Assembly (NCBI GenBank): GCA_045579365.1
Contig: JAZNLZ010000021.1
Coordinates: forward strand, 37,794 to 101,793
Source of the DNA: Acutalibacteraceae bacterium
GTDB lineage: Bacteria; Bacillota; Clostridia; Oscillospirales; Acutalibacteraceae
DNA length: 64,000 bases
Direction: 5' to 3'
The notes beneath the pieces were generated by a model. That model was given only the letters and a program-made list of their open reading frames with translations. It was not told the DNA's origin and did not search any database. The first letter of the stretch is position 1. Every line of letters starts with the position of its first letter. Positions 10,685-62,729 of this stretch are shown here, piece by piece. The translations under genes were made by a program, and so were the position numbers.

Positions 10685-13282
10685 ATGGCAGAATTGTCCC
10701 CAATGATGAGACAGTATTTTGAAATAAAATCACAAATGGAAGATAGTATTCTCTTTTTCAGAGTGGGCGATTTTTACGAAATGTTTTTCGAAGATGCCAA
10801 AATATCCTCCGAAGAGTTAGATTTGGTTTTAACGGGTAAAGATTGTGGACAGGCTGAACGTGCCCCAATGTGTGGCGTACCTTTCCACAGTTGTGATGCT
10901 TATATAAGCCGATTGGTTGCCAAGGGTTACAAGGTTGCAATTTGCGAACAGGTTGAAAACCCTGCCGAAGCCAAGGGAATTGTAAGGCGTGAGGTTGTTA
11001 GAATTATCACCCCCGGTACCGTTATTGAAGATAATATGCTGGATGAAGGTCTTAACAACTATTTGGCTTGTTTGTGCGTTGCCGATGGGAATTACGGTTT
11101 TTGTTTCACCGATGCTTCAACAGGTGAGTGCTTTGTAATTGAGCTTGGTGTTGAGAATGTCCAAAATCGCATTATCGAGCAAATTAACCGTTTCAAGCCC
11201 AGCGAACTTCTTATAACCGAAAATCAAATTAAAACCCATAAAGGTTTGGATTCCTTCTTAAAGGAAGGTTACACAGGAACTGTAACCGTAAGGGCTGAGA
11301 ATGCAATTTCTCCCGAATATACCCGTGAACTCATATTAAAACATTTTGCCGTTGTCAGCACCGAGAATTTAGGACTTAGAGAAAACAGTGCCGTTGCAGG
11401 TGCTTTGGGTGGAATTATAACCTACCTTTACGAAACCGGTGTTAGTGGCAATATTTCGGTTAAAAAGGTTGACATTTACTCCGAGAGCGAATATATGCGC
11501 CTCGATATGACTGCTATCAGAAATCTTGAACTTACCGAAACAATGCGTTCGGGTTCTAAAAAAGGTTCGCTTTTGTGGGTTATGGATAAAACCCGTACCC
11601 CAATGGGTAAAAGACTTCTCAGAAACTGGATTGAAAAGCCTTTGCTTTCAATTCCTCAAATAACCCTTCGCCAAAATGCAGTGGATGAACTTATTTCCAA
11701 CGAAATTTTGCTTGGTGAACTAAGAGAAGCTTTAAGTGGAATTAAAGATATTGAGCGCACAATGACCAAGGTGGTTTACGGTTCGGTTAAGCCAAGAGAA
11801 CTGAATTTACTTGCCGAAACAATATCTCATTTTCCTGCAATAAAGCAGTTGCTTTCAAACAGCGAGTGCCGACTTTTAAAGGAAATCTACCGAGATATTG
11901 ATGAACACGCCGAGGTTCGTGAATTGATTGAAACTGCAATTCACGACAGTCCCAAAAATACCGTTCGTGAGGGTGGTATTATTAAGGATGGTTACAACGA
12001 AGAACTTGACAAAATAAGAGCCTTAATGCAAGGAAGCACCGATTTCCTTTCGGAAATTGAAGCAAGAGAGAAAGAAAAAACCGGCATTAAGACCTTAAAG
12101 GTAAAATATAACAAGGTTTTCGGTTACTATATTGAGGTTACAAATTCCTTCCTCGATAAAGTGCCAGAAGATTATGTAAGAAAACAAACCCTTACCAATG
12201 CCGAGCGTTTCATCACCGATGAATTAAAAGAAATCGAGCGACAAATGCTTTCGGCTAAAGACAGGGTGGTAACCCTTGAGTATCAACTTTTTGATGAGGT
12301 AAGACAAAGAACGGCTGCCGAAATTGAACAGTTCCAAAAAACTGCTTCGGCTATTGCTAAACTTGATACCCTTTGTTCCTTAGGTTTGGTAGCAGTAAAC
12401 AATCGTTATTGCCGACCCTTGGTTGATACAAGTGGATGTATTAACATTAAGGATGGTCGCCATCCCGTTGTTGAACAAATTAGCAAAATGCCCTTTGTGG
12501 CTAACGATACTTTGCTTGATATGAAGGCAAACCGTTGCGCCATTGTAACAGGCCCTAATATGGCAGGTAAATCAACATATATGAGACAAACTGCCATCAT
12601 AACCCTTTTGGCTCAAATCGGTTCCTTTGTTCCTGCAACAAGCGCAAAAATCGGTTTGGTAGATGCAATTTTCACCCGTGTTGGCGCTTCGGACGATTTG
12701 GCTTCGGGTCAGTCAACCTTTATGGTGGAAATGAGCGAGGTTGCCGATATTTTGAAATACGCAACCAAAAAGAGTTTGCTGATTTTAGATGAAATCGGTC
12801 GTGGAACATCCACCTTTGATGGTATGTCTATCGCCCGTGCAGTACTTGAATTTGTTGCCGATAAGAAAAAACTTGGCGCAAAATCACTTTTCGCAACCCA
12901 TTACCACGAGTTAACCTCAATGGAAAACGAACTTGACGGAATTAAGAATTATAACATCGCCGTTAGAAAAAGAGGGGATGACATTACCTTCTTACGTCGT
13001 ATCGTTCCCGGTCCTGCCGATGACAGTTACGGTATCGAGGTTGCAAAACTAAGTGGTATTCCCGATTCGGTTATCGAACGTGCAAAAGAAATTTTAAAAC
13101 AAACCGAGGAAGAGGGAATTGTAACCTATAAATCGGTGGAAAGTTCTGATATGCAAATGCCTTTGGAAATGCAAAGTGCAGGGGATATCTTAAAGGAACT
13201 TCAAAGTGTGGATGTGAACACACTAACGCCTATCGAGGCAATGCAAATCTTGTTTGATTTGTGTAATAAAGCAAAAAATTAA
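10685..13282 (+). CDS. mutS: DNA mismatch repair protein MutS
   Basis: N-terminal FYEMF mismatch-binding motif, Walker A GPNMAGKST, and DEIGRGTST. Confidence 0.95.
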   Translation: MAELSPMMRQYFEIKSQMEDSILFFRVGDFYEMFFEDAKISSEELDLVLTGKDCGQAERAPMCGVPFHSCDAYISRLVAKGYKVAICEQVENPAEAKGIVRREVVRIITPGTVIEDNMLDEGLNNYLACLCVADGNYGFCFTDASTGECFVIELGVENVQNRIIEQINRFKPSELLITENQIKTHKGLDSFLKEGYTGTVTVRAENAISPEYTRELILKHFAVVSTENLGLRENSAVAGALGGIITYLYETGVSGNISVKKVDIYSESEYMRLDMTAIRNLELTETMRSGSKKGSLLWVMDKTRTPMGKRLLRNWIEKPLLSIPQITLRQNAVDELISNEILLGELREALSGIKDIERTMTKVVYGSVKPRELNLLAETISHFPAIKQLLSNSECRLLKEIYRDIDEHAEVRELIETAIHDSPKNTVREGGIIKDGYNEELDKIRALMQGSTDFLSEIEAREKEKTGIKTLKVKYNKVFGYYIEVTNSFLDKVPEDYVRKQTLTNAERFITDELKEIERQMLSAKDRVVTLEYQLFDEVRQRTAAEIEQFQKTASAIAKLDTLCSLGLVAVNNRYCRPLVDTSGCINIKDGRHPVVEQISKMPFVANDTLLDMKANRCAIVTGPNMAGKSTYMRQTAIITLLAQIGSFVPATSAKIGLVDAIFTRVGASDDLASGQSTFMVEMSEVADILKYATKKSLLILDEIGRGTSTFDGMSIARAVLEFVADKKKLGAKSLFATHYHELTSMENELDGIKNYNIAVRKRGDDITFLRRIVPGPADDSYGIEVAKLSGIPDSVIERAKEILKQTEEEGIVTYKSVESSDMQMPLEMQSAGDILKELQSVDVNTLTPIEAMQILFDLCNKAKN

Positions 13283-13301
13283 TTAAAAGGGAGGGAACAA
13301 G

Positions 13302-15197
13302 ATGCCAAGAATTAATCTATTACCAAAAAATGTGGCCGAATTAATTGCTGCAGGTGAGGTTGTTGAACGACCTGCTTCGGTTATAAAGGAACTTGTGGAA
13401 AATTCCATCGATGCCAAGGCCACACAAATCACTGTGGAAATTCAGCGTGGTGGTATTACATATATTCGCATTACCGATAATGGTATTGGTATTGAGGCAG
13501 AAGATGTTCCCACTGCCTTTTTGCGCCATGCCACCAGTAAAATTAAAACCCAAGTAGATCTTGACAGTATTGCTACTTTGGGCTTTAGAGGTGAGGCTTT
13601 GGCTGCCGTTTCTTCGGTTGCAAGGGTTGAAATGTTAACCTGTAGCGAGAATAGCAACGAAGGCACCCATTATGTTATCGAAGGCTCTGAGGAGAAACTA
13701 AATGAATTTGCAGGTTGTCCAAGGGGCACCACAATTATAATCAGGGATATTTTTTACAATACCCCTGCTCGTATGAAATTCCTTAAAAAGGATGTTTCTG
13801 AAGGTAATGCTTGTGCATCGGTGGTGGAAAGAATTGCCCTTTCTCACCCTGAAATCGCTTTTAGGTTAATAAGGGATGGAAAAACCGTTCTTACCACATC
13901 GGGTAACGGAGACACTAAGGCTTGTGTTTACTCGGTTTTGGGTAGAGATTTCTCCAATTCCTTAATTGATGTAAAAGATGAAATTAACGGAATTAAGGTT
14001 TCGGGGTTGACCTGCAAACCCTTTGCTTGTAAAGCCACAAGAAACGGACAATACACCTTCCTAAACGGCCGTTTGGTTCGTTCGGGTACCGTTATTGCTG
14101 CTGTGGAACAAGCCTATAAAAACAGTGCAATGGTTGGCAAATTCCCCGCCTTTGTGCTTTATTTGGAAATTCCTTTTGATACGGTGGATGTTAACGTTCA
14201 TCCTGCCAAGACCGAGGTTAGATTTTCCGATGAAAAACGCATTTTTGATGCAGTTTATGCTTCGGTTAAAAACGCCTTGGCTGCAGGGGATACACGCCCC
14301 GAAATTAAAATGAATAAGGCTCCTTTTAATCCTTTCCAAAGGGTGACGGCCAGTGAATATCGCCAACAGGCTATAACCGAGCCTGTAATTCAAAAAACCG
14401 AGCCCGTTAAAACAGAGCCGGTTCAAAAACCTGTTATTATTCAAAAAAGCGAACCTGCTCCCATAAAGAAGGAAACGGTGCTTGAATCTAAGCCTGATTT
14501 TGAGTTTATGGATAGATATGCCTTGGCAAATGAAAAGGGAGAAAAAGTGGAACCCACAGCCCAAAAGAAAACCGATTTGGACGTGGTAATTGAGGTGGAG
14601 GAAACAAAACCCCAACCCATAATTTCGGATGAACCTGAAATTATAATTATCGGCGAGGCTTTTTCAACCTATATTGTGGCTCAAATGAAGGACAGCGTAT
14701 TTATGATAGATAAACACGCAGCCCATGAGAGAATTCTTTTCAACAAACTTAAATCGGAAGAAAAAACCGAAATCCAAGCCTTGCTAACGCCCATCACCGT
14801 TACCCTTTCAAGTGCTGAGTATGATGGCATTATAAACCACTTGGAATTACTCGAAAAAAGTGGTTTTGAGGTTGAGGATTTTGGGAATTCAACCGTAATT
14901 GTTCGTGGACTCCCCACATTTTTAACGGGAGAAAATATAAACAATCTTTTATCCGAAATCGCCGAAGGTTTAATCACAACCGGCAAGGTTTCGACTGCGA
15001 GAGAGGATAATGTTTTTCACACTGTTGCTTGTCGTGCTGCCGTTAAAGCAGGCAACAGCATCAGCCGTTTTGAAATGCTTGATTTAGCCAAAAAGGTATT
15101 GCTTGATAAAGAGGTAATGTATTGTCCTCACGGTCGCCCTGTGGCTTTTGAGATTAAAAAACGGGAACTTGAAAAACAGTTTGGTAGAATACAATGA
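13302..15197 (+). CDS. mutL: DNA mismatch repair protein MutL
   Basis: GHKL N-terminus (AAGEVVERPASVIKELVENSIDA, DNGIGI) and the C-terminal endonuclease motif DKHAAHERI. Confidence 0.95.
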   Translation: MPRINLLPKNVAELIAAGEVVERPASVIKELVENSIDAKATQITVEIQRGGITYIRITDNGIGIEAEDVPTAFLRHATSKIKTQVDLDSIATLGFRGEALAAVSSVARVEMLTCSENSNEGTHYVIEGSEEKLNEFAGCPRGTTIIIRDIFYNTPARMKFLKKDVSEGNACASVVERIALSHPEIAFRLIRDGKTVLTTSGNGDTKACVYSVLGRDFSNSLIDVKDEINGIKVSGLTCKPFACKATRNGQYTFLNGRLVRSGTVIAAVEQAYKNSAMVGKFPAFVLYLEIPFDTVDVNVHPAKTEVRFSDEKRIFDAVYASVKNALAAGDTRPEIKMNKAPFNPFQRVTASEYRQQAITEPVIQKTEPVKTEPVQKPVIIQKSEPAPIKKETVLESKPDFEFMDRYALANEKGEKVEPTAQKKTDLDVVIEVEETKPQPIISDEPEIIIIGEAFSTYIVAQMKDSVFMIDKHAAHERILFNKLKSEEKTEIQALLTPITVTLSSAEYDGIINHLELLEKSGFEVEDFGNSTVIVRGLPTFLTGENINNLLSEIAEGLITTGKVSTAREDNVFHTVACRAAVKAGNSISRFEMLDLAKKVLLDKEVMYCPHGRPVAFEIKKRELEKQFGRIQ

Positions 15198-25866: not shown

Positions 25867-25898
25867 CCAAATTTTGTCCGAAAGGATAAGTTGAGTTT

Positions 25899-26673: not shown

Positions 26674-26692
26674 ATAAAGTAAGGTTGATTTT

Positions 26693-29550: not shown

Positions 29551-29571
29551 ATTGAAATAGGAGGAAAAAAG

Positions 29572-29940: not shown

Positions 29941-29957
29941 TATTGGAGGATTAGTTT

Positions 29958-31775: not shown

Positions 31776-31792
31776 GAAAGGAGCCTAGTATA

Positions 31793-35790: not shown

Positions 35791-36717
35791 CTAACTAATA
35801 TATTCCTTTGCAGTGGCTGTAAGGTCGGCAAACAGCAAAGATAATGTAACGTTTGTTACAAGACTTTCTTCAAAGGATGGGAGCTTATTATAAAATTTAA
35901 GTAGGGAAGGTGCCCTAACCGATGAAGGATTTTTCTTAATTTCATTAGCAACTAAAATTTTTAAATCCTTTATAAGTCGGTCAGCCTCAATACGGCTGTT
36001 CTCAAAGGGAGTAAGGCAGGTAAGCATTCCCCATTGATCGCCAGACAGGGCAAACTTCAAAAACTCTTTGGAAGCCTCGCTAACCTTAGGCGTAGCATTT
36101 CCGTTTAAAAACATAAGTGCTCTGCCAATATTGTTGCGAGAATTTTGAAGAGCAGTTTCAATATCGTTTTTATCAAACTGACTGTTTTTCTCTAAATATT
36201 CCGAAGCCTCGGTGAAACTTGGAACATTAAGGCTTAAAACAACACATCTTGAAATAATTGTATCCAAAAGGGAAGCTTTGCTTTCGGCAATTAAGATAAA
36301 CAAAGTGTTTTCAGGGGGTTCTTCTAAAACCTTAAGAAGTGCATTTTGGCACTGAGGGGTTAAACTTTGGGCAGGGTCGATTATGAAAACTTTATTCTTT
36401 GCTTGATGTGGTTTAATGTAAGCATTGTTTTTAAGTTCTCTAATTTGGTCAACAGCAAAGTTTTTCTTGTCCTTCTCGGGTGTTAAAAAACTAATATCGG
36501 GGTGATTTTCGGTTTGTGCCATATGGCAGTTGTTACACCTGCCACAAGGAATGTTATCATCACCACAAACCATGGCGCAAGCCAAGAAGTTTGCTAATGT
36601 GTGTTTTCCGGTTCCGGTATCACCGTCAATTAAAATTGCGTGGGGAATACGGTGCTCTTTTAAAGCATTTTCCAGTGAAGGCTTAATTTTACTGTTGCCG
36701 ACAAGGGGAAATGTCAT
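35791..36717 (-). CDS. holB: DNA polymerase III delta' subunit
   Basis: AAA+-like GDTGTGKHT, Zn-module CGRCNNC, and SRC motif (IISRC). Confidence 0.85.
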   Translation of the reverse strand: MTFPLVGNSKIKPSLENALKEHRIPHAILIDGDTGTGKHTLANFLACAMVCGDDNIPCGRCNNCHMAQTENHPDISFLTPEKDKKNFAVDQIRELKNNAYIKPHQAKNKVFIIDPAQSLTPQCQNALLKVLEEPPENTLFILIAESKASLLDTIISRCVVLSLNVPSFTEASEYLEKNSQFDKNDIETALQNSRNNIGRALMFLNGNATPKVSEASKEFLKFALSGDQWGMLTCLTPFENSRIEADRLIKDLKILVANEIKKNPSSVRAPSLLKFYNKLPSFEESLVTNVTLSLLFADLTATAKEYIS

Positions 36718-41315: not shown

Positions 41316-42149
41316 ATGAAGACACGAATTATTTCAGGAATTGTTATGGGCGCTATCGTAGCCTGTGTTTTAGCAGTAGGTTTTTTATGGAACACTGCAG
41401 TTATTACAGTGGCACTTGCTTTACTTGCTGCCGTGGCAATTTATGAACTTTTACACAACGCTGCAAAGATAGACTCGAAATACACACTTATTGGCGCCGT
41501 GGTTTATGTGTTTTTAAATACATTGTTGCCACTGGAAATACCCACATATATACTTTCAAGTTATTTATTACCTCCAAGCGTTTCTTATAAAAGCTTGGCG
41601 CTTGGTGTGCTCTACTTTATTTTTGCGGCTGTAGGCACACTTAAAAATAATAAAAACTTCTCATTGGGTCATATTTGCGCTTCATGCTTTGGACCTATGA
41701 TTTTAAGCACTGCGTTTGTATTTTTGAACTTTGTAATAATATCTAGAGAGAGTTTATATTATTTACTACTCCTCTTTAACTTCTCATCAGTTTGCGATAT
41801 GGGTGCATATTTCAGCGGTGTAACTTTAGGAAAACACAAGCTTTGCCCTTCGATTAGTCCTAAGAAAACTGTTGAGGGTGCAGTGGGAGGTATTCTTTCA
41901 AGTATTGTTGTAACCCTTATTCTTTCGCTTTGCTTTAAGAAAGCAATACTTTTGCCAATGCTTTTAACCGTTCCTTTCTGCATTTTAGGAATGATAGGCG
42001 ACCTTTTTGCATCGGCAATTAAGAGAAGTGTTGATTTAAAGGATTACGGCAACTTAATCCCCGGTCACGGTGGAATTTTGGACCGACTTGACAGTATCTT
42101 AATGATTTCACCCTTGTTGGCCTTGGTTATGGCAATAGGTATTATCTAA
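41316..42149 (+). CDS. cdsA: Phosphatidate cytidylyltransferase
   Basis: Polytopic protein with the C-terminal signature SAIKRSVDLKDYGNLIPGHGGILDRLDS. Confidence 0.9.
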   Translation: MKTRIISGIVMGAIVACVLAVGFLWNTAVITVALALLAAVAIYELLHNAAKIDSKYTLIGAVVYVFLNTLLPLEIPTYILSSYLLPPSVSYKSLALGVLYFIFAAVGTLKNNKNFSLGHICASCFGPMILSTAFVFLNFVIISRESLYYLLLLFNFSSVCDMGAYFSGVTLGKHKLCPSISPKKTVEGAVGGILSSIVVTLILSLCFKKAILLPMLLTVPFCILGMIGDLFASAIKRSVDLKDYGNLIPGHGGILDRLDSILMISPLLALVMAIGII

Positions 42150-43285
42150 TGAAAGATTTAATCATTTTAGGTTCCACCGGTTCAATTGGCACCCAAAGTT
42201 TAGAGGTTGCTCGAGAACAGGGTTATTCAGTTTCGGGTTTGGTTGCAGGTTCTAATATTGACCTTTTGGAGAAACAAGCAAGAGAGTGGAAGCCCAAAAC
42301 CGTTGCCGTTTTCAACGAGCAAAGTGCAAAGGATTTAAAACTTAGACTTGCCGACACTGATGTTAAAGTTTTGTCGGGTAGTGAAGGGGTTTGTCAGGTG
42401 GCTTCGGGCGAAGGTGACACTGTAATTAATGCTATTGTTGGTATTGCAGGTTTAAAACCCACTCTTTCGGCCATCGAGTCGGGTAAAACCATTGCCCTTG
42501 CAAACAAGGAAACCTTGGTAACAGGTGGCGAAATTGTAAACCGTAAGGCTAAAGAAAAAGGTGTTAAAATTCTACCCGTTGATAGTGAACACTCGGCAAT
42601 TTTCCAATCTTTGCAGGGTGCTCCCGAGGGAAGCCTTAAGAAGATTTTGCTAACAGCTTCGGGTGGTCCTTTTTTTGGTAAAAAGAAAAGCGATTTGGAA
42701 AATGTAACCGTAAAGGAAGCCCTTAACCATCCCAACTGGTCCATGGGTGCTAAAATTACTATTGACTCGGCCACCCTTATGAATAAAGGGTTAGAGGTTA
42801 TCGAAGCAGTGCATTTATTCGGTATCCCTGCCGATAATATTGAGGTTTTGGTTCATAGACAAAGCATAATCCACTCGGGCGTTGAACTTTCGGATGGCGC
42901 CGTTATTGCTCAACTTGGAACCCCCGATATGCGACTTCCAATTCAGTATGCTTTAACCTATCCCGAAAGAAGCAATTACGCTTTTGAAAAACTTGATTTA
43001 TTCAAGGTTGGCACTCTAACCTTTGAGAAACCTGATACCGACACCTTCCGTTGTTTGCCATTGTGTATTAAAGCAATTAACGAGGGTGGTATTTTACCAA
43101 CTGTGGTTAACGGTGCTAACGAAGAAGCAGTAAGACTTTTCCTTGACGGTAAATGCAAGTTCTTGCAAATTGCCGAACTTGTGGAAAAAGCCTTAAATTC
43201 AGTAAATAATATTAAAGATTTTACTTTAGACGATATCTTTGCTGCCGATAAATTGGCCCGTGAAATCGTCAGAAAAGGTGATTGA
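42149..43285 (+). CDS. dxr: 1-deoxy-D-xylulose-5-phosphate reductoisomerase
   Basis: ILGSTGSIG, LANKE, DSEHSA and NHPNWSMG motifs. Confidence 0.93.
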   Translation: MKDLIILGSTGSIGTQSLEVAREQGYSVSGLVAGSNIDLLEKQAREWKPKTVAVFNEQSAKDLKLRLADTDVKVLSGSEGVCQVASGEGDTVINAIVGIAGLKPTLSAIESGKTIALANKETLVTGGEIVNRKAKEKGVKILPVDSEHSAIFQSLQGAPEGSLKKILLTASGGPFFGKKKSDLENVTVKEALNHPNWSMGAKITIDSATLMNKGLEVIEAVHLFGIPADNIEVLVHRQSIIHSGVELSDGAVIAQLGTPDMRLPIQYALTYPERSNYAFEKLDLFKVGTLTFEKPDTDTFRCLPLCIKAINEGGILPTVVNGANEEAVRLFLDGKCKFLQIAELVEKALNSVNNIKDFTLDDIFAADKLAREIVRKGD

Positions 43286-44327
43286 TATTTTAAACTTTTT
43301 AAATAATGTTTGGCCATACGTTGTGGCAGTGCTATTATTTTTAATTCTCATTTTAATACACGAGTTTGGCCATTTCATTTCGGCAAAACTTTTGGGTGTT
43401 AGGGTAAACGAGTTTGCCATCGGTTTTGGTCCCACTTTGTTTTCAAAACAGGGCAAGGAGACTCTTTACTCCTTTAAACTTATTCCCTTGGGTGGTTATT
43501 GCGCCATGGAGGGTGAGGATGAAAGCAGCACCGATGATAGAGCATTTTGCAACAAAAAGGCTTGGAAAAGATTTATTATCGTTGTAATGGGAGCGATTTT
43601 CAATCTTTTACTCGGTCTTATTATTGTGGCTGTTATTTTGGCACCTTCAAAAATGTTTGCGACCACAACCATTGCCAAATTTGCCGAAAATGCTAAAAGT
43701 TATGAAAGTGGTCTTAAAGAGGGCGACACTATTCTTTATGTAGATGGCCGAAAGATATTTACCACTTATGATTTAAGTTATGCCTTTACAAATGTGGATG
43801 ACGGCAAAATTGATATTACAGTTTTGAGAAAAGGCGAGAAAAAACTTTTAAAGAATGTGGAATTTGAATCGGAAACCTACGAAGGCATTAATTTTTTGAA
43901 TGTTGATTTCAATGTTTATGGCGAGAAAAAGACGGTAGGTTCCTATATTAAGCAAACCTTTAAAACAGCCGTTTCCTATTGTGCTGTAATTTGGCGAAGT
44001 TTAATTGATTTACTCGCTGGCAAATATGGTATTAGCGCTGTTTCAGGTCCTGTGGGTGTTACCGTTACGGTGGCAAACGCAGCAAAACAAAGTTTGCAAA
44101 ACCTACTTCCCATAATGGCACTTATAACCATAAATTTGGGAATTTTTAATCTGCTCCCAATTCCTGCTTTGGATGGTGGAAGACTTTTATTCATTCTCAT
44201 TGAAATGATAACAAGAAAGCCGGTGCCCCAAAAATATGAATCGGTAATTCATACTGTGGGATTTGTGGCTTTGTTCGGATTTATGATATTGGTAATGTTT
44301 AAGGATATTTGGACACTTATTTTTTAA
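43278..44327 (+). CDS. rseP: RIP metalloprotease RseP/RasP (site-2 protease)
   Basis: HEFGH zinc motif, a PDZ segment, and NLLPIPALDGG. I chose the GTG at 43278, which overlaps the dxr stop. The ORF-track start at 43239 lies inside dxr. Confidence 0.85.
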   Translation: MIDILNFLNNVWPYVVAVLLFLILILIHEFGHFISAKLLGVRVNEFAIGFGPTLFSKQGKETLYSFKLIPLGGYCAMEGEDESSTDDRAFCNKKAWKRFIIVVMGAIFNLLLGLIIVAVILAPSKMFATTTIAKFAENAKSYESGLKEGDTILYVDGRKIFTTYDLSYAFTNVDDGKIDITVLRKGEKKLLKNVEFESETYEGINFLNVDFNVYGEKKTVGSYIKQTFKTAVSYCAVIWRSLIDLLAGKYGISAVSGPVGVTVTVANAAKQSLQNLLPIMALITINLGIFNLLPIPALDGGRLLFILIEMITRKPVPQKYESVIHTVGFVALFGFMILVMFKDIWTLIF

Positions 44328-44333
44328 GGTGAT

Positions 44334-45389
44334 ATGATGTTTACAAATGATAAGACAAGAAAGGTAAAGGCAGGCGACCTTTATATAGGTGGCTCAAGTG
44401 AAATTTCGGTTCAGTCTATGTTGTCTGTACCTGTTCACGATATTGAGGGTAATGTTTTACAGGCCCGTCGCTTGCAGTCGGCAGGCTGTGATATTGTTCG
44501 TGTTACCGTACCCGATAAAGAGGCTTTAAAAACGGTAGAAGCGTTAAAGAAAAGCATAACCATCCCGTTGGTTGCTGATATTCATTTTGATTATAAATTG
44601 GCTATTGATAGCGTTTCGGCCGGTGTGGATAAGGTTAGAATTAACCCCGGTAACATCGGTGATGACGAAAAGGTAAGACTTGTGGCAAATGCTTGTAAAA
44701 ATGCAGGTGTTCCCATTAGAATTGGCGTTAATTCAGGCTCACTTGAAAAGAATATCTTGGCTAAATACGGTGGCGTTACCCCCGAGGCTTTGGTGGAAAG
44801 TGGTCTTTACCATATTTCTCTTTTGGAAAAGTTTGATTTTGATGATATCGTTTTGTCCCTTAAATCATCCGACCCTCAAATAATGTATAAGGCCTATGAA
44901 TTAGCAGCCGAAAAATGCTCCTATCCCTTGCATTTGGGCGTAACCGAGGCAGGCACCGAAAATATGGGTGTCATAAAATCCTCGGCTGCCATTGGTGGTT
45001 TGCTTTTAAGGGGAATAGGTGATACTATTCGCATTTCCTTAACCGATGACCCTGTTAAAGAGGTTGAGGCAGGAATTAAGTTGCTCAAAGCCTTGTCTAT
45101 TCGCAAGGGTGGTATTAAATTTGTTTCTTGCCCCACTTGTGGAAGAACCCAAATTGACCTTATCGGTATTGCGAAAGAGGCTGAAAAACGCCTTGAAAAT
45201 GTTAATAAGGACATAACCGTTGCAATAATGGGTTGTGTTGTAAATGGCCCGGGTGAAGCATCGGCAGCCGATATTGGAATTGCCGGTGGCGACGGCTGTG
45301 GCGTCCTTTTTAAAAAGGGCAAGATACTTAAAAAATTAAATGAAAATGAACTTTTAAATGCGTTGTGTGAAGAAATAGAAAAGATGTAA
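44334..45389 (+). CDS. ispG: 4-hydroxy-3-methylbut-2-enyl-diphosphate synthase
   Basis: RINPGNIG and the [4Fe-4S] Cys motifs CPTCGR...GCVVNGPGE. Confidence 0.92.
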   Translation: MMFTNDKTRKVKAGDLYIGGSSEISVQSMLSVPVHDIEGNVLQARRLQSAGCDIVRVTVPDKEALKTVEALKKSITIPLVADIHFDYKLAIDSVSAGVDKVRINPGNIGDDEKVRLVANACKNAGVPIRIGVNSGSLEKNILAKYGGVTPEALVESGLYHISLLEKFDFDDIVLSLKSSDPQIMYKAYELAAEKCSYPLHLGVTEAGTENMGVIKSSAAIGGLLLRGIGDTIRISLTDDPVKEVEAGIKLLKALSIRKGGIKFVSCPTCGRTQIDLIGIAKEAEKRLENVNKDITVAIMGCVVNGPGEASAADIGIAGGDGCGVLFKKGKILKKLNENELLNALCEEIEKM

Positions 45390-45403: not shown

Positions 45404-48400
45404 ATGTCAAAACCCAGTTACAGTGATATTTTCGGTAAATTCCCAGAAGCGGACATCGGAAATTTAATCGACAGCTGTACAGTAGTTAAATGTGCATTAA
45501 ATATTGAAGATAGAATTATAGATTTAAATTTAGAGGCAAAGGAATATATTCCTTTGGCAGTTAGAAGACAGGTAGTAACCCACATAAAATCAACCTTGCA
45601 ACTAAAGGATTGTAAGGTTTGTTTCACTTTTTCTAAAGATGCTTTTTGCGTACAAGCATTAATGGATGTATCCGAAGAAATCAGATATAAAAACACCTTG
45701 ATTAACGGATATTTAAATGGCGCTGATTATCTCGTAGAAGGCGATAATGTTAAAATCTCACTAAAACACGGTGGCTTTAAGAAAACCTGTGAATGTGGAT
45801 TTGAAAAGTTGTTTAAACTTCGTGTCAAAGAACTTTTCGGAAGGGATATTGTGTTGAGTTTTGATGGACAACTTGAGGATGTGGAAATGCCCCTTCCTGA
45901 GCCTCCAAAACCGGCACCTAAACCTGCGCCCAAAAAAGAGGCACCCAAGGAGACTAAAATTTCCTTTGAAAAGAGGGATGAAAGACCTCAAAACGGCATT
46001 GTATATTTAGATGACCCCAAACTTTTTTACGGTAGAAGAATTGATAACAACACTAAACCTATGATTGAGGTTAGTGATGAAGATACCGAAATTGTTTGTT
46101 GGGGTGAGGTTTTTGATACCGATAGCCGTACAATCAATACAAAACGTGGCGAAGCAGTTATTTTCAATTTTTCCTTTAGCGATTACACGAACTCATTGAC
46201 TGCATCTATGTTTATGGACCCAAAACGAATGGGGGATATTGCGCCCATTAAAAAGGGTAGTTTCATTTTGGTTAACGGTGGTTATGAGTTCGATAACTAT
46301 AAAAAAGAGTTTATCGTAAAACCCCGTTCAATCGCTTTACTTCAAAAATATACCGAGACCGATGATTATGAGGGTCTTAAGAGGGTTGAACTTCATTGCC
46401 ATACCAATATGTCTTCAAAGGATGCCGTAAGTTCGGCTGAGGATATTATTAATCAGGCTTATAAATGGGGTCATAAGGCTGTTGCTATTACCGACCACGG
46501 TGTTGTTCAAGCTTATCCTGCTGCAGCAGGTGCTGTTAAGGGTATTCGTAAATCGGGTGGAGATTTCAAGGTTATTTACGGTGTTGAAGCCTATTTCGTG
46601 GATGATAGTGTTCATAAGGTTGATGGCTTGGGCGCCAAAGAACTTTCAAAACTTCGCCACCACCAAATTATCTTGGTTAAGAACCTTACAGGTCTTAAAA
46701 ACCTTTATAAATTGGTTTCCGAAGCCCATTTAAAAGACTTTAAGGGCAAACCTTTAACCCTTCGCTCTAAACTTGAAGAATTGCGTGAAGGTTTGATTAT
46801 CGGTTCGGCTTGTGAACAGGGTGACCTTTACCAAGCAATTATTGAAGAAAAGCCTCACGAAGAACTTGTGAGAATTGCTTCATTTTACGATTATTTGGAA
46901 ATTCAGCCCCTTGGCAATAACCAGTTTATGGTTAGAGAGTCTTCGGCTCCTGATAGAACTGATAAGAAGACAGGCGCAGTTATACCAAACAAATTCCGTA
47001 AGGTAAAAAGTCTTGATGTTATTAAGGACTTTAATCGCAAGGTTGTAGAATTGGCTGATGAACTTGGCAAACCTGTTGTGGCAACGGGTGACGTTCACTT
47101 CCTTAAAAAGAGCGATGACATAATCCGTAAAATTTTAATGGCAGGTCAAGGTTTTGATGACTTTGACAATCAAGCACCTTTGCACCTTAAAACAACTGCC
47201 GAAATGCTTAATGATTTTGCATATTTTGGCGACCGTGCAAAAGAGTTTGTTATTGATAATCCTAATAAAATTGCCGATATGGTGGATGGGGATGTTATCC
47301 CTGTGCCCGATGGCAACTTCCCACCTGTGATTGAGGGTTCGGATGATTTACTTAGAGAAATTTGTTGGGATAACGCTCATAAGCGTTATGGCGAAAAGGT
47401 TCCCGAAATAGTTGAAAAGCGTCTTGAAAAGGAACTAAACTCAATTATTAACAACGGCTTCTCCATAATGTATATTTCGGCTCAAAAGCTTGTGGCTTAT
47501 AGTGAGGAACACGGCTACTTGGTTGGTTCCCGTGGTTCGGTTGGCTCTTCCTTCGTTGCAACAATGGCAGGAATTTCCGAGGTTAACCCCTTGGCGCCCC
47601 ACTATGTTTGTCCTAAGTGTCAGTATAACGAATTTTTCACAAAAGGTGAGGTAGGCTCAGGCTTTGACTTGCCAGAAAAGAAATGTCCTGTTTGCGGCGA
47701 AATGCTTGACCGTGACGGTCACGACATTCCTTTCGAAACCTTCTTAGGGTTTAAGGGCGACAAGGTTCCTGATATCGACCTTAACTTCTCCAACGAATTC
47801 CAAACCGAGGTTCAAAAATATACCGAAAGTTTATTCGGTAGCGAAAACGTGTTTAAGGCAGGTACAATTACAACTATTGCCGAGAAAACTGCCTTCGGTT
47901 TTGCAAAGGCCTATGCCGAGAAAAAGGGAATTACCTTGAGTTCAGCCGAACTTAACCGTTTGGCAAAACTTGTGGAAAAGGCAAAGATTAAGCAAACAAC
48001 AGGTCAGCACCCTGCAGGTATGATTGTAGTGCCAAGAGATAAGGAAATTTACGATTTTTGCCCTGTGCAACATCCTGCCGATGATGTTAATTCCGATGTT
48101 ATAACAACCCACTTCGACTTCCATTCTATCCATGATACTATTTTAAAATTGGATGAACTGGGTCACGTTATTCCTACAACATATAAGTACTTGGAAGAGT
48201 ATTCGGGAATACCTGTAAGCAAGGTTTCCATGAGCGACCCCAAGGTTTATAGTTTGTTTACCTCCACCGAGGCTTTGGGCGTTACTCCCGAGGAGATTGA
48301 GTCCCAAACCGGAACCTACTGTATCCCCGAGTTTGGAACATCCTTTGTTAGAGGAATGCTTGCCGACTGTAAACCCAAAAACTTCTCCGACCTTTTGCAA

Positions 48401-49219
48401 ATTTCGGGTCTTTCCCACGGCACCGACGTTTATCTTGGTAACGCGAAAGATTTGATTGATAACGGTACCTGTACCATTTCCGAAGTTATCGGTACCCGTG
48501 ATAATATTATGGTGTATCTAATTCACCAGGGTATGGAAGAAGGTAGAGCCTTTAAGATTACCGAGACCGTTCGTAAAGGTTTGGTTGCAAAAGGCAAGGT
48601 TTCCAAGGAAGATTGGGAGGCAATGGAGGAAGATATGCGCAAGGTTGGTGTGCCTGAGTGGTATATCGGCAGTTGCTATAAGATTAAGTATATGTTCCCC
48701 AAAGCCCACGCTGCAGCCTATGTTACTGCTGCAATAAGGGTTGCTTGGTACAAGGTTTACAGACCTCTCGAATTCTACTGTGCGTACTTCACAGCCCGAC
48801 CTGAAGATGTTGATGTTCCCGTGCTTATGGGTGGTAGAACGGCTGTCCAAAAATATCTTAGAGATATTAAGGCAAAGGGCAAAGAAGCCACCAAAAAGGA
48901 ACTTGATGTATATGAAAATATGCTCATTTTCAACGAGATGATGGCAAGAGGAATTGAAGTATTGCCTATCGATATAAACAAATCCCACGCTATGAAATAT
49001 GTGCCAGAAGATGGCAAAATGCGTTTGCCTTTTGGTGCTTTGGGTGGCGTTGGCGAAAAGGCTGCTTACTCCATTTACGAGGCGGCCCAAAAAGGAAACT
49101 TTGTTTCTAAAGAAGATTTCCAAATTGAAGCAGGTGTTTCCAAAACCATCATTCAAAATCTTGCCGATTTAGGCGCTTTGAATGACCTTCCCGATACAAA
49201 CCAAATGTCTATGTTTTAG
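45404..49219 (+). CDS. polC: DNA polymerase III PolC-type, without the inserted 3'-5' exonuclease domain
   Basis: OB domain, PHP motifs (HCHT, TDHG, GVEAY, GSACEQG, TGDVHF), Zn finger CPKC...CPVCG, palm PDIDLNF and KAHAAAY. The protein is 1271 aa. I found no DxE, NxxFD or HxxxxD exonuclease motifs. Confidence 0.9.
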   Translation: MSKPSYSDIFGKFPEADIGNLIDSCTVVKCALNIEDRIIDLNLEAKEYIPLAVRRQVVTHIKSTLQLKDCKVCFTFSKDAFCVQALMDVSEEIRYKNTLINGYLNGADYLVEGDNVKISLKHGGFKKTCECGFEKLFKLRVKELFGRDIVLSFDGQLEDVEMPLPEPPKPAPKPAPKKEAPKETKISFEKRDERPQNGIVYLDDPKLFYGRRIDNNTKPMIEVSDEDTEIVCWGEVFDTDSRTINTKRGEAVIFNFSFSDYTNSLTASMFMDPKRMGDIAPIKKGSFILVNGGYEFDNYKKEFIVKPRSIALLQKYTETDDYEGLKRVELHCHTNMSSKDAVSSAEDIINQAYKWGHKAVAITDHGVVQAYPAAAGAVKGIRKSGGDFKVIYGVEAYFVDDSVHKVDGLGAKELSKLRHHQIILVKNLTGLKNLYKLVSEAHLKDFKGKPLTLRSKLEELREGLIIGSACEQGDLYQAIIEEKPHEELVRIASFYDYLEIQPLGNNQFMVRESSAPDRTDKKTGAVIPNKFRKVKSLDVIKDFNRKVVELADELGKPVVATGDVHFLKKSDDIIRKILMAGQGFDDFDNQAPLHLKTTAEMLNDFAYFGDRAKEFVIDNPNKIADMVDGDVIPVPDGNFPPVIEGSDDLLREICWDNAHKRYGEKVPEIVEKRLEKELNSIINNGFSIMYISAQKLVAYSEEHGYLVGSRGSVGSSFVATMAGISEVNPLAPHYVCPKCQYNEFFTKGEVGSGFDLPEKKCPVCGEMLDRDGHDIPFETFLGFKGDKVPDIDLNFSNEFQTEVQKYTESLFGSENVFKAGTITTIAEKTAFGFAKAYAEKKGITLSSAELNRLAKLVEKAKIKQTTGQHPAGMIVVPRDKEIYDFCPVQHPADDVNSDVITTHFDFHSIHDTILKLDELGHVIPTTYKYLEEYSGIPVSKVSMSDPKVYSLFTSTEALGVTPEEIESQTGTYCIPEFGTSFVRGMLADCKPKNFSDLLQISGLSHGTDVYLGNAKDLIDNGTCTISEVIGTRDNIMVYLIHQGMEEGRAFKITETVRKGLVAKGKVSKEDWEAMEEDMRKVGVPEWYIGSCYKIKYMFPKAHAAAYVTAAIRVAWYKVYRPLEFYCAYFTARPEDVDVPVLMGGRTAVQKYLRDIKAKGKEATKKELDVYENMLIFNEMMARGIEVLPIDINKSHAMKYVPEDGKMRLPFGALGGVGEKAAYSIYEAAQKGNFVSKEDFQIEAGVSKTIIQNLADLGALNDLPDTNQMSMF

Positions 49220-49283: not shown

Positions 49284-49358
49284 GCCCGTATAGTTCAACG
49301 GATAGAATAAGGTCCTCCTAAGACTTAGATGCAGGTTCGATTCCTACTACGGGTGCCA
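49284..49358 (+). tRNA. tRNA-Arg (anticodon CCU), CCA encoded
   Basis: I folded the cloverleaf by hand. Acceptor stem is GCCCGTA/TACGGGT, anticodon loop is CT-CCT-AA, and the T-loop is TTCGATT. It has a G1.U72 pair and one C-A mismatch in the T stem. Confidence 0.75.
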
Positions 49359-53600: not shown

Positions 53601-55277
53601 TTAGAATAAACCGGTTATTTTACCGTTTTCATCAATATCAATACGCTCAGCAGCAGGAGCTTTTGGTAAACCTGGCATAGTCATTATATCGCCTGTAAGA
53701 GCAACAATAAATCCTGCACCTGCAGAAATCTTAAGATTTCTAACGGTTACTGTAAATCCGTTTGGAGCGCCCAATTTTGTTTGGTCATCTGAGAAACTGT
53801 ATTGAGTTTTAGCCATACAAATAGGACAGTTGCCAAAGCCCATCTCGGTAAGCTTTTGAGCCTGTTTCTTAGCGTTAGGTGTTAAAACAACACCATCTCC
53901 ACCGTAAACATTTTTAACAATGGCATCAATTTTTTCTTCGATAGTACCATCCAACTCATAAGAGAAGGTAAAGTCGCCCTTTTCTTCTTCGCAAAGTCGA
54001 ACAACTTCACGAGCCATCTCCTCGCCGCCTTTACCACCTTCGGCCCAAACATTTGAAAGAACAACATTAACGCCTAAGTCTTTGCACTTTTCAATAATGA
54101 AGTCAATTTCATTGTCAGTGTCGGTGGGGAAACGGTTAACTGCAACAACGCAGGGGAGTTTGTAAACATTTTTAATGTTAGAAACATGGCGTAAAAGATT
54201 GGGGATACCTTTCTCTAAAGCCTCAAGATTTTCTTCGCCCAAAGCCTTTTTGTCAAGACCACCGTGCATCTTTAATGCTCTAACGGTAGCGACCATAACA
54301 ACGGCGCTAGGAGTAAGACCGGCCATACGGCACTTAATGTCAAGGAACTTTTCAGCACCCAAGTCAGCGCCGAAACCTGCTTCGGTAATAGCATAGTCGC
54401 CAAGCTTAAGTGCGAGTTTGGTTGCAGTAACACTGTTACAACCGTGAGCGATGTTAGCGAAAGGACCACCATGTACTAAAGCAGGGGTGCCTTCAAGGGT
54501 TTGAACCAAGTTGGGTTTAATAGCATCCTTCAAAAGGGCAGCCATTGCACCTGCAGCGTTTAACTGACCTGCAGTAACGGGTTCTTCATTAAAGGTATAA
54601 CCAACAATGATGTTGGATAAACGCTTTTTAAGGTCGGCAATATCACTTGCTAAGCAAAGAACAGCCATGATTTCACTGGCAACGGTAATGTCAAAACCAT
54701 CTTCACGGGGAACACCGTTAATTCTGCCACCTAAACCATCGGTAACAAAACGAAGTTGACGGTCGTTCATATCAACACAGCGTTTCCAGGTGATACGGCG
54801 AGTGTCAATTCCTAAAGCGTTTCCTTGGTGGATGTGGTTGTCAAGCATTGCAGCGAGAAGGTTGTTGGCAGCGCCGATAGCGTGGAAGTCACCTGTAAAG
54901 TGAAGGTTAATATCCTCCATAGGAACAACCTGAGCATAGCCACCACCAGCAGCGCCACCCTTGATACCGAAAACGGGACCCAAGGAAGGCTCACGCAAAG
55001 CAACACAAACATTTTTGCCAATTCTTGCCATACCGTCAGCAAGACCGATAGTGGTAGTAGTCTTACCCTCACCGGCAGCAGTGGGGGTAATGGCTGTTAC
55101 CAATATTAATTTACCATTGGGTTTAGTATTTTCTTTAACTAGGGAAAGGTCAATTTTAGCTTTATAATTACCGTATTGCTCAAGATATTTACGGTCGATA
55201 CCGGCTTTATCAGCAATTTCGGTAATGGGTTTCATTTGGCATTGTTGCGCAATTTCAATATCGGTTAAAAAAGCCAT
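53601..55277 (-). CDS. fhs: Formate--tetrahydrofolate ligase
   Basis: 558 aa with [13 protein letters not shown] (P-loop) and [13 protein letters not shown] motifs. Confidence 0.95.
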
Positions 55278-55297
55278 TTAAAACTTCCTCCTAATAA

Positions 55298-58200
55298 TTA
55301 TTTAAAGTATTTTACTGCAGATTTGAACATCTTAATGTCATAATCGCCGTAAACATTTTTATAAAGGCCGTTGTTCCAACGTTCACTGTGACCCATCTTA
55401 CCAAATACTCTACCATCAGGAGAGGTGATACCCTCAATAGCATACATAGAGTCGTTGGGGTTAAAGTGAACATCGCTTGTTGCGTTGCCGGCTAAATCAA
55501 CATATTGAGTTGCGATTTGTCCGTTCTTTGCCAATTCCATAATGAGTTTTTCATCAGCCAAGAAACGACCTTCACCGTGGGAAATGGGCACATTGTAAAT
55601 GTCGCCAACATTTGTACTGCTAAGCCAAGGAGACTTGTTAGAAGCAATACGGGTTTGAACGATTCTGGATTGGTGGCGACCAATGGTGTTAAATGTAAGG
55701 GTTGGGCAGTTTTCATCGGTATCGATAATCTTACCGTAAGGAACAAGACCTAACTTAATAAGCGCTTGGAAACCATTACAAATACCACACATAAGACCAT
55801 CTCTATTATCAAGAAGGTCGGTAACTTGTTCTTTAATAGCGCCGTTACGGAAGAAAGCAGTAATAAACTTACCACTACCGTCTGGCTCGTCACCACCCGA
55901 GAAACCACCGGGAACGAATATCATTTGAGCACCCTTAACCTTGTTTGCAAACTCTTCAACCGAACGGGCAATACCGTCGGATGAAAGGTTGTTAATAACA
56001 AAGATTTCAGGGTCGGCACCTGCATCACGCATAACCTTAGCAGAATCAAATTCGCAGTTGGTACCGGGGAATACAGGGATAAGCACCTTAGGAGTTGCAA
56101 CCTTAATTGCAGGAGCAACACGGCTCTCGGCATTGTAAGAGAAGTTCTCCATAGGAGTCTTACGGTCTTCAATGTTGCACTTGAATACGCTTTCAAGTTT
56201 GTTTTCGTAAGTGTTAAGAAGGTCGCTTAAAGCAACGCTTTCATCACCTAATACTAATTTGCCACAATCGCAAACAGTACCGATAGCGATAGCATCTTCA
56301 ACGTCTTCAGTAACCTCTAAAATAAAGCTACCGTAGTTGTAACCGAAGATGGCCTTGTTATCCATATTATCATCAAACTTAAAGCCAAATCCGTTACCGA
56401 AGCACATCTTCATAACAGCTTCGCCAATACCACCATAGGTGGGAGTGTAAGCAGCAAGAACCTTGCCCTCGCGCATAAGTTGGGTTACACGGTTGAAAAT
56501 TCTGATTTGTGATTCGGGGTTGGGAAGGTTGGTGTCAGCATCATAAATGGGGCTTAAAAGAACAACCTTATTTCCGGCCTTTTTGAATTCAGGAGAAATG
56601 ATGTTTCCAACCTTATCGGTTGTAACAGCAAAGGAAACGAGGGTGGGAGGAACATCTAAATCCTCGAAACTACCACTCATAGAGTCCTTACCACCGATAG
56701 AACCGATTGAGAAGTCTTTTTGAGCCTTAAATGCGCCAAGCAATGCAGACAAAGGTTTGCCCCAACGCTTGCCATCTTTACCGGGACGCTCAAAATACTC
56801 TTGGAAGGTGAGATATACATCTTCAAAACTGCCACCGGTAGCAACAAGTTTTGCAACCGATTCAACAACTGCCAAGTAAGCACTGTGGAAGGGGCTTCTC
56901 TCAGCAATGTAGGGGTTGTATCCCCAAGACATAAGGGAGCAATCATCGGTGTGTTTCTTTTCAACCGAGATTTTTTGAACCATTGCTTGAATTGGGGTTA
57001 ATTGATATTTGCCACCGAAAGGCATAAGTACAGTGCCGGCACCGATGGTGGAGTCAAATTGCTCGGAAAGACCACGCTTGGAACAAGCATTAAGGTCATC
57101 GGCTAAATGCTCCATATTCTCCTTAAAGCCACCCTCAATAATTCTTTCATAATCCTTGGGAGCTTCGGGAGTGATATCAATGTGCTTTTCAGCACCGTTA
57201 GAATTTAAAAATTCACGGCTAATGTCAACAATAGTGTTGCCGTTCCAAATCATGGTAAGGCGAGGTTCAGCAGTAATGTCAGCCACCTTAACAGCCTGCA
57301 AGTTTTCAGCGTTTGCAAGTTCTAAGAAACGGTCAACATTTTCTTTCTCAACAACAACAGCCATTCTCTCTTGAGACTCACTAATAGCAAGTTCAGTACC
57401 GTCAAGACCGTCATATTTCTTGGGAACAGCGTTAAGGTCAATAAGAAGACCGTCAGCCAATTCGCCGATAGCAACCGAAACGCCACCTGCACCAAAGTCA
57501 TTACAACGTTTGATTAAGAGGCTGGCTTCTTTGTTTCTGAATAATCTTTGAAGTTTTCTTTCTTCAGGAGCATTACCCTTTTGAACTTCAGCACCACAAC
57601 TCTCTAAAGATTCTAAAGTGTGGGACTTGGAAGAACCGGTAGCACCACCACAACCGTCACGTCCGGTAGAACCACCAAGAAGAATTACAACATCACCGGG
57701 GCAGGGAACTTCACGGCGAACGTTTTCAGCAGGAGCAGCAGCAATAACAGCGCCGATTTCCATACGCTTTGCAGCATAGCCATCGTGGTAAAGTTCATCA
57801 ACAATACCGGTAGCAAGACCGATTTGGTTACCGTAAGAAGAATAACCGTCAGCAGCAGTTGTAACAATCTTTCTTTGGGGTAATTTACCCTTTAAGGTTT
57901 CGCTAACGCTCTTTAAGGGGTTAGCAGCACCGGTAACACGCATAGCACCGTAAACATAACTTCTACCCGAAAGTGGGTCACGGATGGCACCACCGATACA
58001 GGTAGCAGCACCACCAAAGGGTTCAATTTCGGTGGGGTGGTTATGGGTTTCGTTCTTGAAGAGGAGTAACCAATCTTCCGAAACACCATCAACATCTACC
58101 TTGATTTTAACGGTACAAGCATTAATTTCTTCGGATTCATCAAGTTTGGGGAGTTTGCCCTCTTTTTTGAGGTAACGAACAGCCAAAGTGGCAATATCCA

Positions 58201-58990: not shown

Positions 58991-58992
58991 TT

Positions 58993-60255: not shown

Positions 60256-60279
60256 TTTAAAGCTCCTTAAATTTTACTT

Positions 60280-61518: not shown

Positions 61519-61533
61519 TTTAAATACCTCGCA

Positions 61534-62718: not shown

Positions 62719-62729
62719 TACAGTTCTCC

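Follow-up and report, generated by a model that had tools for sequence, protein, structure and literature searches.

The polC gene of a 64,000-nucleotide stretch of contig JAZNLZ010000021.1 (GenBank assembly GCA_045579365.1, an Acutalibacteraceae bacterium), hereafter called the window, encodes a PolC-type DNA polymerase III alpha subunit that is almost certainly a natural and functional enzyme which has secondarily lost its DnaQ-like exonuclease domain. Antibiotics (ibezapolstat and related compounds) are directed at PolC, which is also the textbook replicase with a built-in proofreader of the DEDDh type. In the window protein the DEDDh domain appears to have been lost precisely from the PHP loop that houses it in canonical PolC. 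Proofreading in the 3′-5′ direction would then most likely be carried out by the trinuclear metal centre of the PHP domain, as in Mycobacterium DnaE1 and Thermus Pol III alpha, and we regard this role of the PHP domain as probable, with considerable room for doubt.

Absence of the exonuclease domain from PolC

The protein matched both PolC equivalogs of NCBIfam, with 1392.6 bits against NF001688 (curated cutoff 873) and 1268.8 bits against TIGR01405 (curated cutoff 1043.45). At the site where canonical PolC carries a DnaQ-like exonuclease of ~190-210 aa, the window protein has only the 17-residue linker S402-R418, SVHKVDGLGAKELSKLR. The spacing between the Glu and His metal ligands across the insertion site is 24 residues, compared with 203-224 residues in most long forms (~212). 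In the comparison with NF001688 the top-scoring stretch joins residues 418-1271 of the window protein to profile positions 614-1444. The alignment to the full-length Enterococcus PolC (9qpc) breaks at the junction and picks up again at chain residue 639, whereas residues 222-1271 align unbroken, OB region included, to 3f2b, the engineered delta-exo form of the G. kaustophilus (Gka) PolC.

At E ≤ 10 the Pfam matches in the window PolC were PHP (329-495), DNA_pol3_alpha, DNA_pol3_finger and HHH_6, and RNase_T (PF00929) was not found. A bespoke hidden Markov model (HMM) of the exonuclease domain, built from 90 PolC inserts and run with filters off, likewise gave no match in the protein at E ≤ 10, and regular expressions for Exo I (DxE), Exo II (NxxxD/NxxFD) and Exo III (HxxxxD) retrieved nothing in the polC open reading frame (ORF). 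The possibility that PolC hides a diverged exonuclease, in the linker or in another part of the protein, was rejected, as the motif and HMM searches were empty and the linker is both short, with its 17 residues, and variable.

Apart from the missing domain, the protein follows the domain order of PolC, with the OB fold N-terminal to PHP, the Pol3 core with its zinc finger, HhH and a C-terminal clamp motif (Table 1). The N-terminal domain has no Pfam hit; its presence is suggested by the 220 residues ahead of the OB fold and by the full-length match to NCBIfam. Between this putative domain and the OB fold lies a Pro/Lys-rich low-complexity spacer, PLPEPPKPAPKPAPKKEAPKETK (45890-45958, PolC residues 163-185), which is strongly variable in the clade. 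Of the polymerase motifs, KLDELGH is presumably analogous to E. coli FDFLGL with its catalytic D555 and would hold the third catalytic Asp.

Most of this had been read from the letters of the stretch in an earlier note, and the reading proved accurate. The exonuclease domain is cleanly absent in frame inside PHP (Pfam, NF001688, and the 9qpc and 3f2b alignments), the linker lies exactly at 46607-46657 in a protein of 1271 aa, and the ORF is free of the three Exo motifs; the PF00929 profile search and the alignment to reference PolCs that the note had proposed are those given above. The other hallmarks that it named (CPKC, CPVCG, PDIDLNF, KAHAAAY) are all present, and so are the nine PHP metal positions (in HCHT, SSKDAV, TDHG, GVEAY, RHHQ, GSACEQG and TGDVHF). 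Its statement that B. subtilis PolC has Asn at the penultimate ligand agrees with the entry HHDHEHCNH for B. subtilis 168 PolC in the supplementary table of Timinskas, Balvociute, Timinskas & Venclovas (NAR 2014), and the rseP-ispG-polC gene order that it called canonical was found with cdsA, dxr, rseP and ispG upstream of polC (NCBIfam).

The short form in related genomes

We compared the protein with its 120 best database homologs (75-99 % identity), taken from ENA, NCBI, JGI and Logan assemblies. All of them are 1267-1285 aa long and all lack PF00929. A scan with each GTDB species represented by one genome gave 436 relatives, of which the best 80 loci (64-97 % identity) came from Acutalibacteraceae, Ruminococcaceae, Oscillospiraceae or Clostridia metagenome-assembled genomes (MAGs) from human and ruminant guts. 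The polC ORF was recovered from 79 of these 80 loci and had the short form in every case. When the sequences were aligned jointly, the Glu-to-His spacing was 18-24 residues in 200/200. The check on relatives suggested in the earlier note thus came out uniformly (120/120 homologs and 79/79 polC genes short), and the loss of the exonuclease domain is fixed throughout a lineage of gut Clostridia at family level (Acutalibacteraceae and relatives).

These comparisons also bear on the possibility that the short gene results from an assembly or sequencing deletion or is a decaying pseudogene. Nothing speaks for it beyond the prior possibility, which the earlier note had raised. The same short architecture occurs in all 200 related sequences, which come from many independent assemblies, the frame of 1271 codons is intact, the functional motifs are conserved, and the composition is native, with GC content flat across the polC region. 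We rejected the artefact and the pseudogene, whose probability we consider negligible.

Conservation and structure of the PHP domain

For conservation we used 197 distinct full-length sequences of the clade, down to 66 % identity. The nine PHP ligands H331, H333, D340, H365, E395, H420, C470, D563 and H565 (HHDHEHCDH) are invariant in 200/200 sequences. Overall 29 % of positions are invariant, so the probability that nine random positions are all invariant is ~1.5e-5. None of the positions of the linker is invariant (0 %). Judging from these alignments, the PHP site of the clade is under purifying selection and the linker is free to vary.

The AlphaFold model of residues 320-640 had a pLDDT of 91.8 and a pTM of 0.91. 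In it, the linker forms a loop with a one-turn helix that joins two barrel strands (block pLDDT 85-87). The best PDB match of the PHP model in Foldseek was the delta-exo Gka PolC 3f2c, co-linear over 319 columns at 2.8 Å, whereas full-length PolC structures needed 478-511 alignment columns to step over the exonuclease. The next matches were the DnaE PHP domains of Thermus, M. tuberculosis and E. coli, and the TM values of DnaE PHP domains were 0.65-0.69. According to the model, the window PolC keeps a continuous PHP barrel with a DnaE-like loop. According to Banos-Mateos et al. 2017 (PMC5636811), a loop beside the PHP active site is where PolC carries its exonuclease, and this loop measures 29 aa in M. 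tuberculosis (Mtb), 18 aa in Taq and 9 aa in E. coli. The Glu-to-His spacing of 24 in the window PolC compares with 22 in Taq (count from the alignment) and 19-20 in DnaE1 of Oscillospirales.

The C-terminal half of the PHP domain contains an extra segment of ~19 residues (window 46916-46984, PolC residues ~505-527) relative to Gka, Enterococcus and most PolCs. It shows up in the spacing from the YLE motif to ATGDVH, which is 60 residues in the window PolC against a median of 41. Compensation for the exonuclease loss was considered for this segment and rejected, as it is confined to the window clade and a few others and shows no correlation with the state of the exonuclease (p=0.25).

The polymerase part is well kept. 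In addition to the invariant motifs of Table 1, KAHAAAY is unchanged in 196/197 sequences, 45 % of the Pol3-core positions are invariant across the family, and the zinc-finger cysteines are kept in the clade. The C-terminus always ends in a clamp-type motif; at the same position, entries of the table of Timinskas et al. 2014 give QIELF, QLSLF and QMTFF for other PolCs. Because its active site, zinc finger, OB fold and clamp-binding tail are kept, the window PolC most likely still works at the replication fork, and we infer its role in the replisome from these features.

Recurrent loss among PolCs

We searched 1.84 billion cluster representatives with residues 72-1271 as the query and obtained 150 PolCs, 135 of which are complete through PHP and the polymerase core (50%-identity representatives). 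These 135 fall into three classes. The exonuclease-bearing class is the largest (94 proteins), with the PHP site intact in 58 and not in 36; both the exonuclease and an intact PHP site are also present in the PolCs of C. thermocellum and Ethanoligenens. The short class comprises 30 proteins with 11-61 residues at the exonuclease site, and 27 of them have an intact PHP site. The remaining 11 proteins (P0141, P0145, P0153, P0168, P0171, P0174, P0176, P0177, P0182, P0215 and P0231) carry inserts of 142-291 aa with no Exo motifs and with no or weak similarity to the exonuclease HMM (<60 bits), and the PHP site is intact in 11/11. Six of the 11 were run against Pfam, and no RNase_T was found in them at E ≤ 1. 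Judged by these features, the relic inserts look like decaying exonuclease domains. They sit uneasily with the remark of a 2026 survey by the Timinskas group (PMC12926913) that the domain which becomes inactive in Pol III alpha is PHP and not DnaQ.

The nine-ligand set HHDHEHCDH is intact in 38/41 PolCs without a recognisable exonuclease and in 58/94 of those that bear it (Fisher p=1.6e-4, uncorrected for phylogeny). With two further degenerate short forms added, the same association has p=1.3e-3, again uncorrected for phylogeny.

A neighbour-joining tree was computed from 878 shared columns with 60 bootstrap replicates. Short forms are scattered in it among long and relic forms, and parsimony requires 17 changes (15-20 across the bootstrap replicates). 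The linkers differ between short-form lineages in length (11-38 aa) and in sequence. The clade of the window protein, which includes P0121 and P0122, has long-form PolCs of the Oscillospiraceae type as its nearest outside relatives. The scattering, the differing linkers and the long nearest relatives indicate that the loss is secondary and recurrent. The reverse, an ancestral absence in a PolC predating the insertion, is unlikely, as on the neighbour-joining tree the short forms are scattered among exonuclease-bearing clostridial PolCs and their linkers differ. Our tentative generalisation, which may well turn out otherwise, is that anaerobic Clostridia have repeatedly discarded the DEDDh proofreader, by clean deletion or through a relic insert, almost only where the older PHP nuclease is intact.

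Possible sources of proofreading without the exonuclease domain

The nine ligands found in the window PolC are the residues which in M. tuberculosis DnaE1 hold a trinuclear zinc centre, the replicative proofreader of this enzyme (PMC5636811). The same study states that every PHP domain with reported exonuclease activity has the full nine-ligand set, and that Gka PolC, with one ligand mutated, has no PHP exonuclease activity. The PolCs of Gka and B. subtilis, both with Asn in place of the Asp ligand, depend on their exonuclease domain. The 2026 survey defines an ‘active’ PHP by the nine-residue motif HHDHEH[C/H]DH and reports that Clostridia usually have three candidate proofreaders, namely PHP in PolC, PHP in DnaE1 and DnaQ in PolC (PMC12926913). 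In C. thermocellum, which has an exonuclease-bearing PolC and DnaE1 and no epsilon proofreading subunit, the PolC change C669Y alone is sufficient for a ~30-fold mutator (bioRxiv 10.1101/2021.07.30.454558). So far this is the strongest sign that fidelity in a clostridial PolC is influenced by its PHP site, but an indirect one, since the change may act structurally.

In the mechanism we favour, the loss of one proofreader would have been tolerable because clostridial PolCs generally carry both. Further fidelity would come from mismatch repair, with mutS and mutL encoded in the window, and from a DnaE1 with its own intact PHP site, as seen in the family. The earlier note had suggested that proofreading may have moved to the PHP domain. 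That PHP proofreads is plausible in view of the ligand invariance, the association of exonuclease loss with PHP and the C669Y mutator, and this mechanism is already implied in the literature. The word ‘moved’ is not quite apt: since most exonuclease-bearing clostridial PolCs also have an intact PHP site (58/94), a redundant proofreader was lost rather than relocated.

Several points weigh against PHP as the proofreader, or against the evolutionary picture drawn around it. To our knowledge, exonuclease activity has been reported for no PolC PHP domain and for no natural PolC lacking the exonuclease domain. The ligands are kept in most exonuclease-bearing clostridial PolCs as well, and they may serve folding or stability, a pyrophosphatase or metal sensing. 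C669Y could act by destabilising the neighbouring polymerase or exonuclease domains, and not only through a loss of PHP catalysis. The search of the source genome for dnaQ and dnaE was confined to the 64-kb window. The tree is a neighbour-joining tree whose deep branches are weakly resolved, which inflates the count of independent losses by an uncertain margin. Finally, the short-form proteins P0224 (1178 aa), P0264, P0180, P0254 and P0269 have degenerate PHP ligands (e.g. HRSLE-SDQ, HHDSERCNR), which means that a PolC can exist without a recognisable proofreader. Three of these five start at PHP and have no N-terminal domain or OB fold; they may be fragments or a distinct mini-PolC.

Another possibility is that the PolC of this lineage has no intrinsic proofreading, and that its PHP site is kept for structural reasons or for other catalysis (e.g. 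pyrophosphatase). Fidelity would then come from polymerase selectivity, mismatch repair and/or the PHP domain of DnaE1 acting in trans. The presence of mutS and mutL in the window and of DnaE1 with an intact PHP in Acutalibacteraceae MAGs would suit this explanation, as would the few short PolCs elsewhere without both proofreaders, the reported in-trans proofreading between two B. subtilis polymerases (cited in PMC12926913), and the conservation of the PHP ligands in exonuclease-bearing clostridial PolCs, which is thus not specific to exonuclease loss. It fits less well with the strong enrichment of exonuclease loss or decay among PolCs with all nine ligands (38/41 vs 58/94), with the invariance of these ligands in ~200 sequences, and with the same ligand set marking every PHP with demonstrated exonuclease activity (PMC5636811). 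Moreover, the Cys-ligand mutant of C. thermocellum is a mutator despite the exonuclease domain and DnaE1 being present. On balance we find this explanation rather unlikely.

A separately encoded DnaQ/epsilon-like exonuclease could also bind the window PolC, in an arrangement like that of E. coli. For the window, ORFs of at least 120 aa judged likely genes were examined with Pfam, and six-frame ORFs of at least 50 aa with the exonuclease HMM and the PolC core; the 80 related loci (1.55 Mb) were scanned in six frames. No RNase_T/DnaQ gene was found in any six-frame ORF of the 64-kb window. The only stand-alone RNase_T protein in the 80 loci is an RNase_T+BRCT gene in an Acutalibacteraceae MAG (L027:10831-11808, + strand), 5 kb downstream of a short-form polC, and it is not found at the equivalent position in the other 79 loci or in the window. 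In favour of such a partner are this gene and the abundance of stand-alone DEDDh proteins in bacteria, with >3 per proteome (PMC12926913). Against it, one such gene in 80 loci amounts to no conserved linkage, C. thermocellum is stated to have no epsilon subunit (bioRxiv 10.1101/2021.07.30.454558), and a conserved docking site would not be expected to look like the short, variable loop that remains in PolC. A partner exonuclease of this kind is very unlikely in our view.

The last alternative concerns the division of labour between the polymerases and was raised by Timinskas et al.: DnaE1 would be the main replicase, and the PolC without exonuclease an auxiliary or specialised enzyme with relaxed selection on its proofreader. 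It is combinable with any of the proofreading scenarios. Their 2014 study credits clostridial DnaE1 with all the features that a replicase needs to work on its own, and notes that DnaE1 is the only one of the two in some Clostridia and that all PolCs without the exonuclease are clostridial. No second C-family polymerase or dnaE was found in the 64-kb window or in the 80 related loci, and the 1230-aa ORF at 55298-58990, considered as a second polymerase, was rejected because it is PurL. DnaE1 is present in the family: it is encoded with 9/9 PHP ligands in two Acutalibacteraceae MAGs, GCA_036309125.1 and GCA_051877215.1 (dnaE at L081:10001-11481 and L082:8220-10182, in the context hprK-glk(ROK)-murB-(rapZ)-whiA-dnaE), which is evidence for the combination of PolC and DnaE1 at the family level only. 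A subordinate role sits poorly with the high conservation of PolC, the 45 % of its Pol3-core positions that are invariant, and its intact catalytic, zinc-finger and clamp motifs, and with the canonical housekeeping neighbourhood of polC. In C. thermocellum, a single change of a PolC ligand raises the genome-wide mutation rate ~30-fold, so much of the DNA in that organism must be made or edited by PolC. We hold DnaE1 as the main replicase to be unlikely.

If Clostridia have indeed discarded the DEDDh domain repeatedly where PHP is intact, these PolC replicases would be natural ‘reversions’ to proofreading by PHP only, and the window protein would be a clean natural system for demonstrating it. 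Natural PolCs without the exonuclease show that PolC can do without the DEDDh domain as long as its PHP site is intact, and they offer a ready-made enzyme for the study of PHP proofreading with no competing exonuclease, a question for replisomes with PolC and DnaE1 that was raised in 2014. In abundant uncultured gut Clostridia, a PolC of this form bears on mutation rates, and fidelity might depend on the supply of zinc or manganese, as the work on Mtb would suggest.

Features of the window

Table 1. Positions of polC, its domains and motifs, and of selected other genes in the 64-kb window
Feature	Position	Strand	Basis or remark
polC, PolC-type DNA polymerase III alpha subunit, short (exonuclease-less) form, 1271 aa	45404..49219	+	ORF; NCBIfam PolC equivalogs
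Segment aligning to residues 12-109 of 3f2b	46067..46363	+	alignment to Gka PolC construct; boundaries approximate
PHP domain, N-terminal part, residues 329-401, ligands H331, H333, D340, H365, E395	46388..46606	+	Pfam PHP 329-495
Linker S402-R418, 17 residues, at canonical exonuclease site	46607..46657	+	profile and 9qpc alignments break here
PHP domain, C-terminal part, residues 419-640, ligands H420, C470, D563, H565	46658..47323	+	motifs, alignment, model
C470 codon, PHP metal-ligand Cys = Gka C670 = C. thermocellum C669	46811..46813	+	GSACEQG; aligns to Gka GSGCDKG
D563-V-H565 (TGDVHF), last two PHP ligands	47090..47098	+	motif; Asp = Asn in Bacilli PolC
Four-Cys zinc finger CPKC ... CPVCG, residues 736-765	47609..47698	+	motif; Cys positions kept in clade
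Palm motif PDIDLNF, two catalytic Asp	47768..47788	+	invariant 197/197
KLDELGH motif	48146..48166	+	invariant 197/197
C-terminal beta-clamp-binding motif QMSMF	49202..49216	+	clade variants QISMF, QMSMF, QMSLF
cdsA, dxr, rseP, ispG, upstream neighbours (canonical polC neighbourhood)	41316..45389	+	NCBIfam
mutS and mutL (mismatch repair, fidelity context)	10685..15197	+	Pfam
holB, clamp-loader delta′ subunit	35791..36717	-	window gene scan

Several other genes of the window were noted in passing. A tRNA-Arg(CCT) gene (49284-49358, + strand) starts 65 nt downstream of the polC stop codon. A cluster for an [FeFe] hydrogenase of the electron-bifurcating type, with NuoE-like, NuoF-like and HydA-like subunits, occupies 25372-33544. 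It contains a small stand-alone PHP-domain protein (28259-29008) between two proteins with histidine-kinase-like ATPase domains; the PHP protein gave no NCBIfam match at E ≤ 1e-10. A tmRNA gene (Rfam RF00023, 170 bits), unreported by ARAGORN, adjoins smpB (33692-34036 and 34075-34533, both on the - strand). The - strand also carries a one-carbon and purine run (53601-63861) of fhs, purL (1229 aa, fused form), purD, glyA, an AICARFT/IMPCHase-family gene, an IMP cyclohydrolase-like gene and a formyltransferase.

Comparison with known systems

The architecture of the window protein is a PolC variant known in print since 2014 rather than a novel type of system; the novelty implied in the earlier note was not borne out. 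Timinskas et al. 2014 reported that ~6 % of PolCs have no exonuclease insertion, that these occur in Clostridia and Negativicutes only, barring one extra copy in Thermotogae, and that they are always found in genomes with both PolC and DnaE1 and have a 9/9 PHP site. One entry of their table, the PolC of Acidaminococcus fermentans (YP_003399045, 1191 aa), has an N-terminal domain, OB, PHP, Pol3 and HhH, the ligands HHDHEHCDH (9/9) and the C-terminal motif QIELF. The window protein shares this domain composition, the nine ligands, a C-terminal clamp motif, a clostridial host and the presence of DnaE1 in the family. It differs in coming from an Acutalibacteraceae gut MAG lineage, which lies outside the 2014 genome set as far as the table shows, and in the length and sequence of its linker, which is consistent with an independent deletion. 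The class itself is thus already known, and what our survey adds, as far as can be read from the sequences, is that the loss is secondary, many times recurrent and tracks with an intact PHP site. The value that remains lies in the putative PHP proofreading of such PolCs and in the pattern that, wherever PHP is intact, the DEDDh domain has apparently been lost or has decayed again and again.

The PolC of C. thermocellum (Clo1313_1219), a clostridial organism with PolC and DnaE1, has the same intact HHDHEHCDH set, and its C669 corresponds to C470. Unlike the window PolC, this protein of 1442 aa retains the exonuclease, so its C669Y mutator is no clean test of PHP-only proofreading. With the PHP-proofreading DnaE1 and Pol III alpha enzymes (M. 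tuberculosis DnaE1, 5lew/7pu7; Thermus, 2hpi/4iqj) the window protein shares an uninterrupted PHP barrel, a nine-ligand trinuclear site and a short loop. It belongs to another polymerase subfamily (PolC, not DnaE), and unlike them it has an N-terminal OB fold and a zinc finger and no tau-binding C-terminal domain. The PHP identity to these enzymes is only ~22-26 %, and exonuclease activity has been demonstrated in them, whereas for the window PolC it is a prediction.

Compared with the canonical PolCs of B. subtilis, S. aureus, G. kaustophilus and E. faecium (3f2b, 9qpc), the identity outside the insert is 41-55 %, and the order of OB, PHP, palm, zinc finger, fingers and HhH as well as the catalytic and clamp motifs are the same. 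The window protein lacks the DnaQ-like exonuclease, and its eighth PHP ligand is Asp, whereas Bacilli PolCs have Asn (the Gka and Enterococcus PolCs read ATGNVHY). In its architecture it is a natural mimic of the engineered delta-exo crystallisation construct 3f2b/3f2c.

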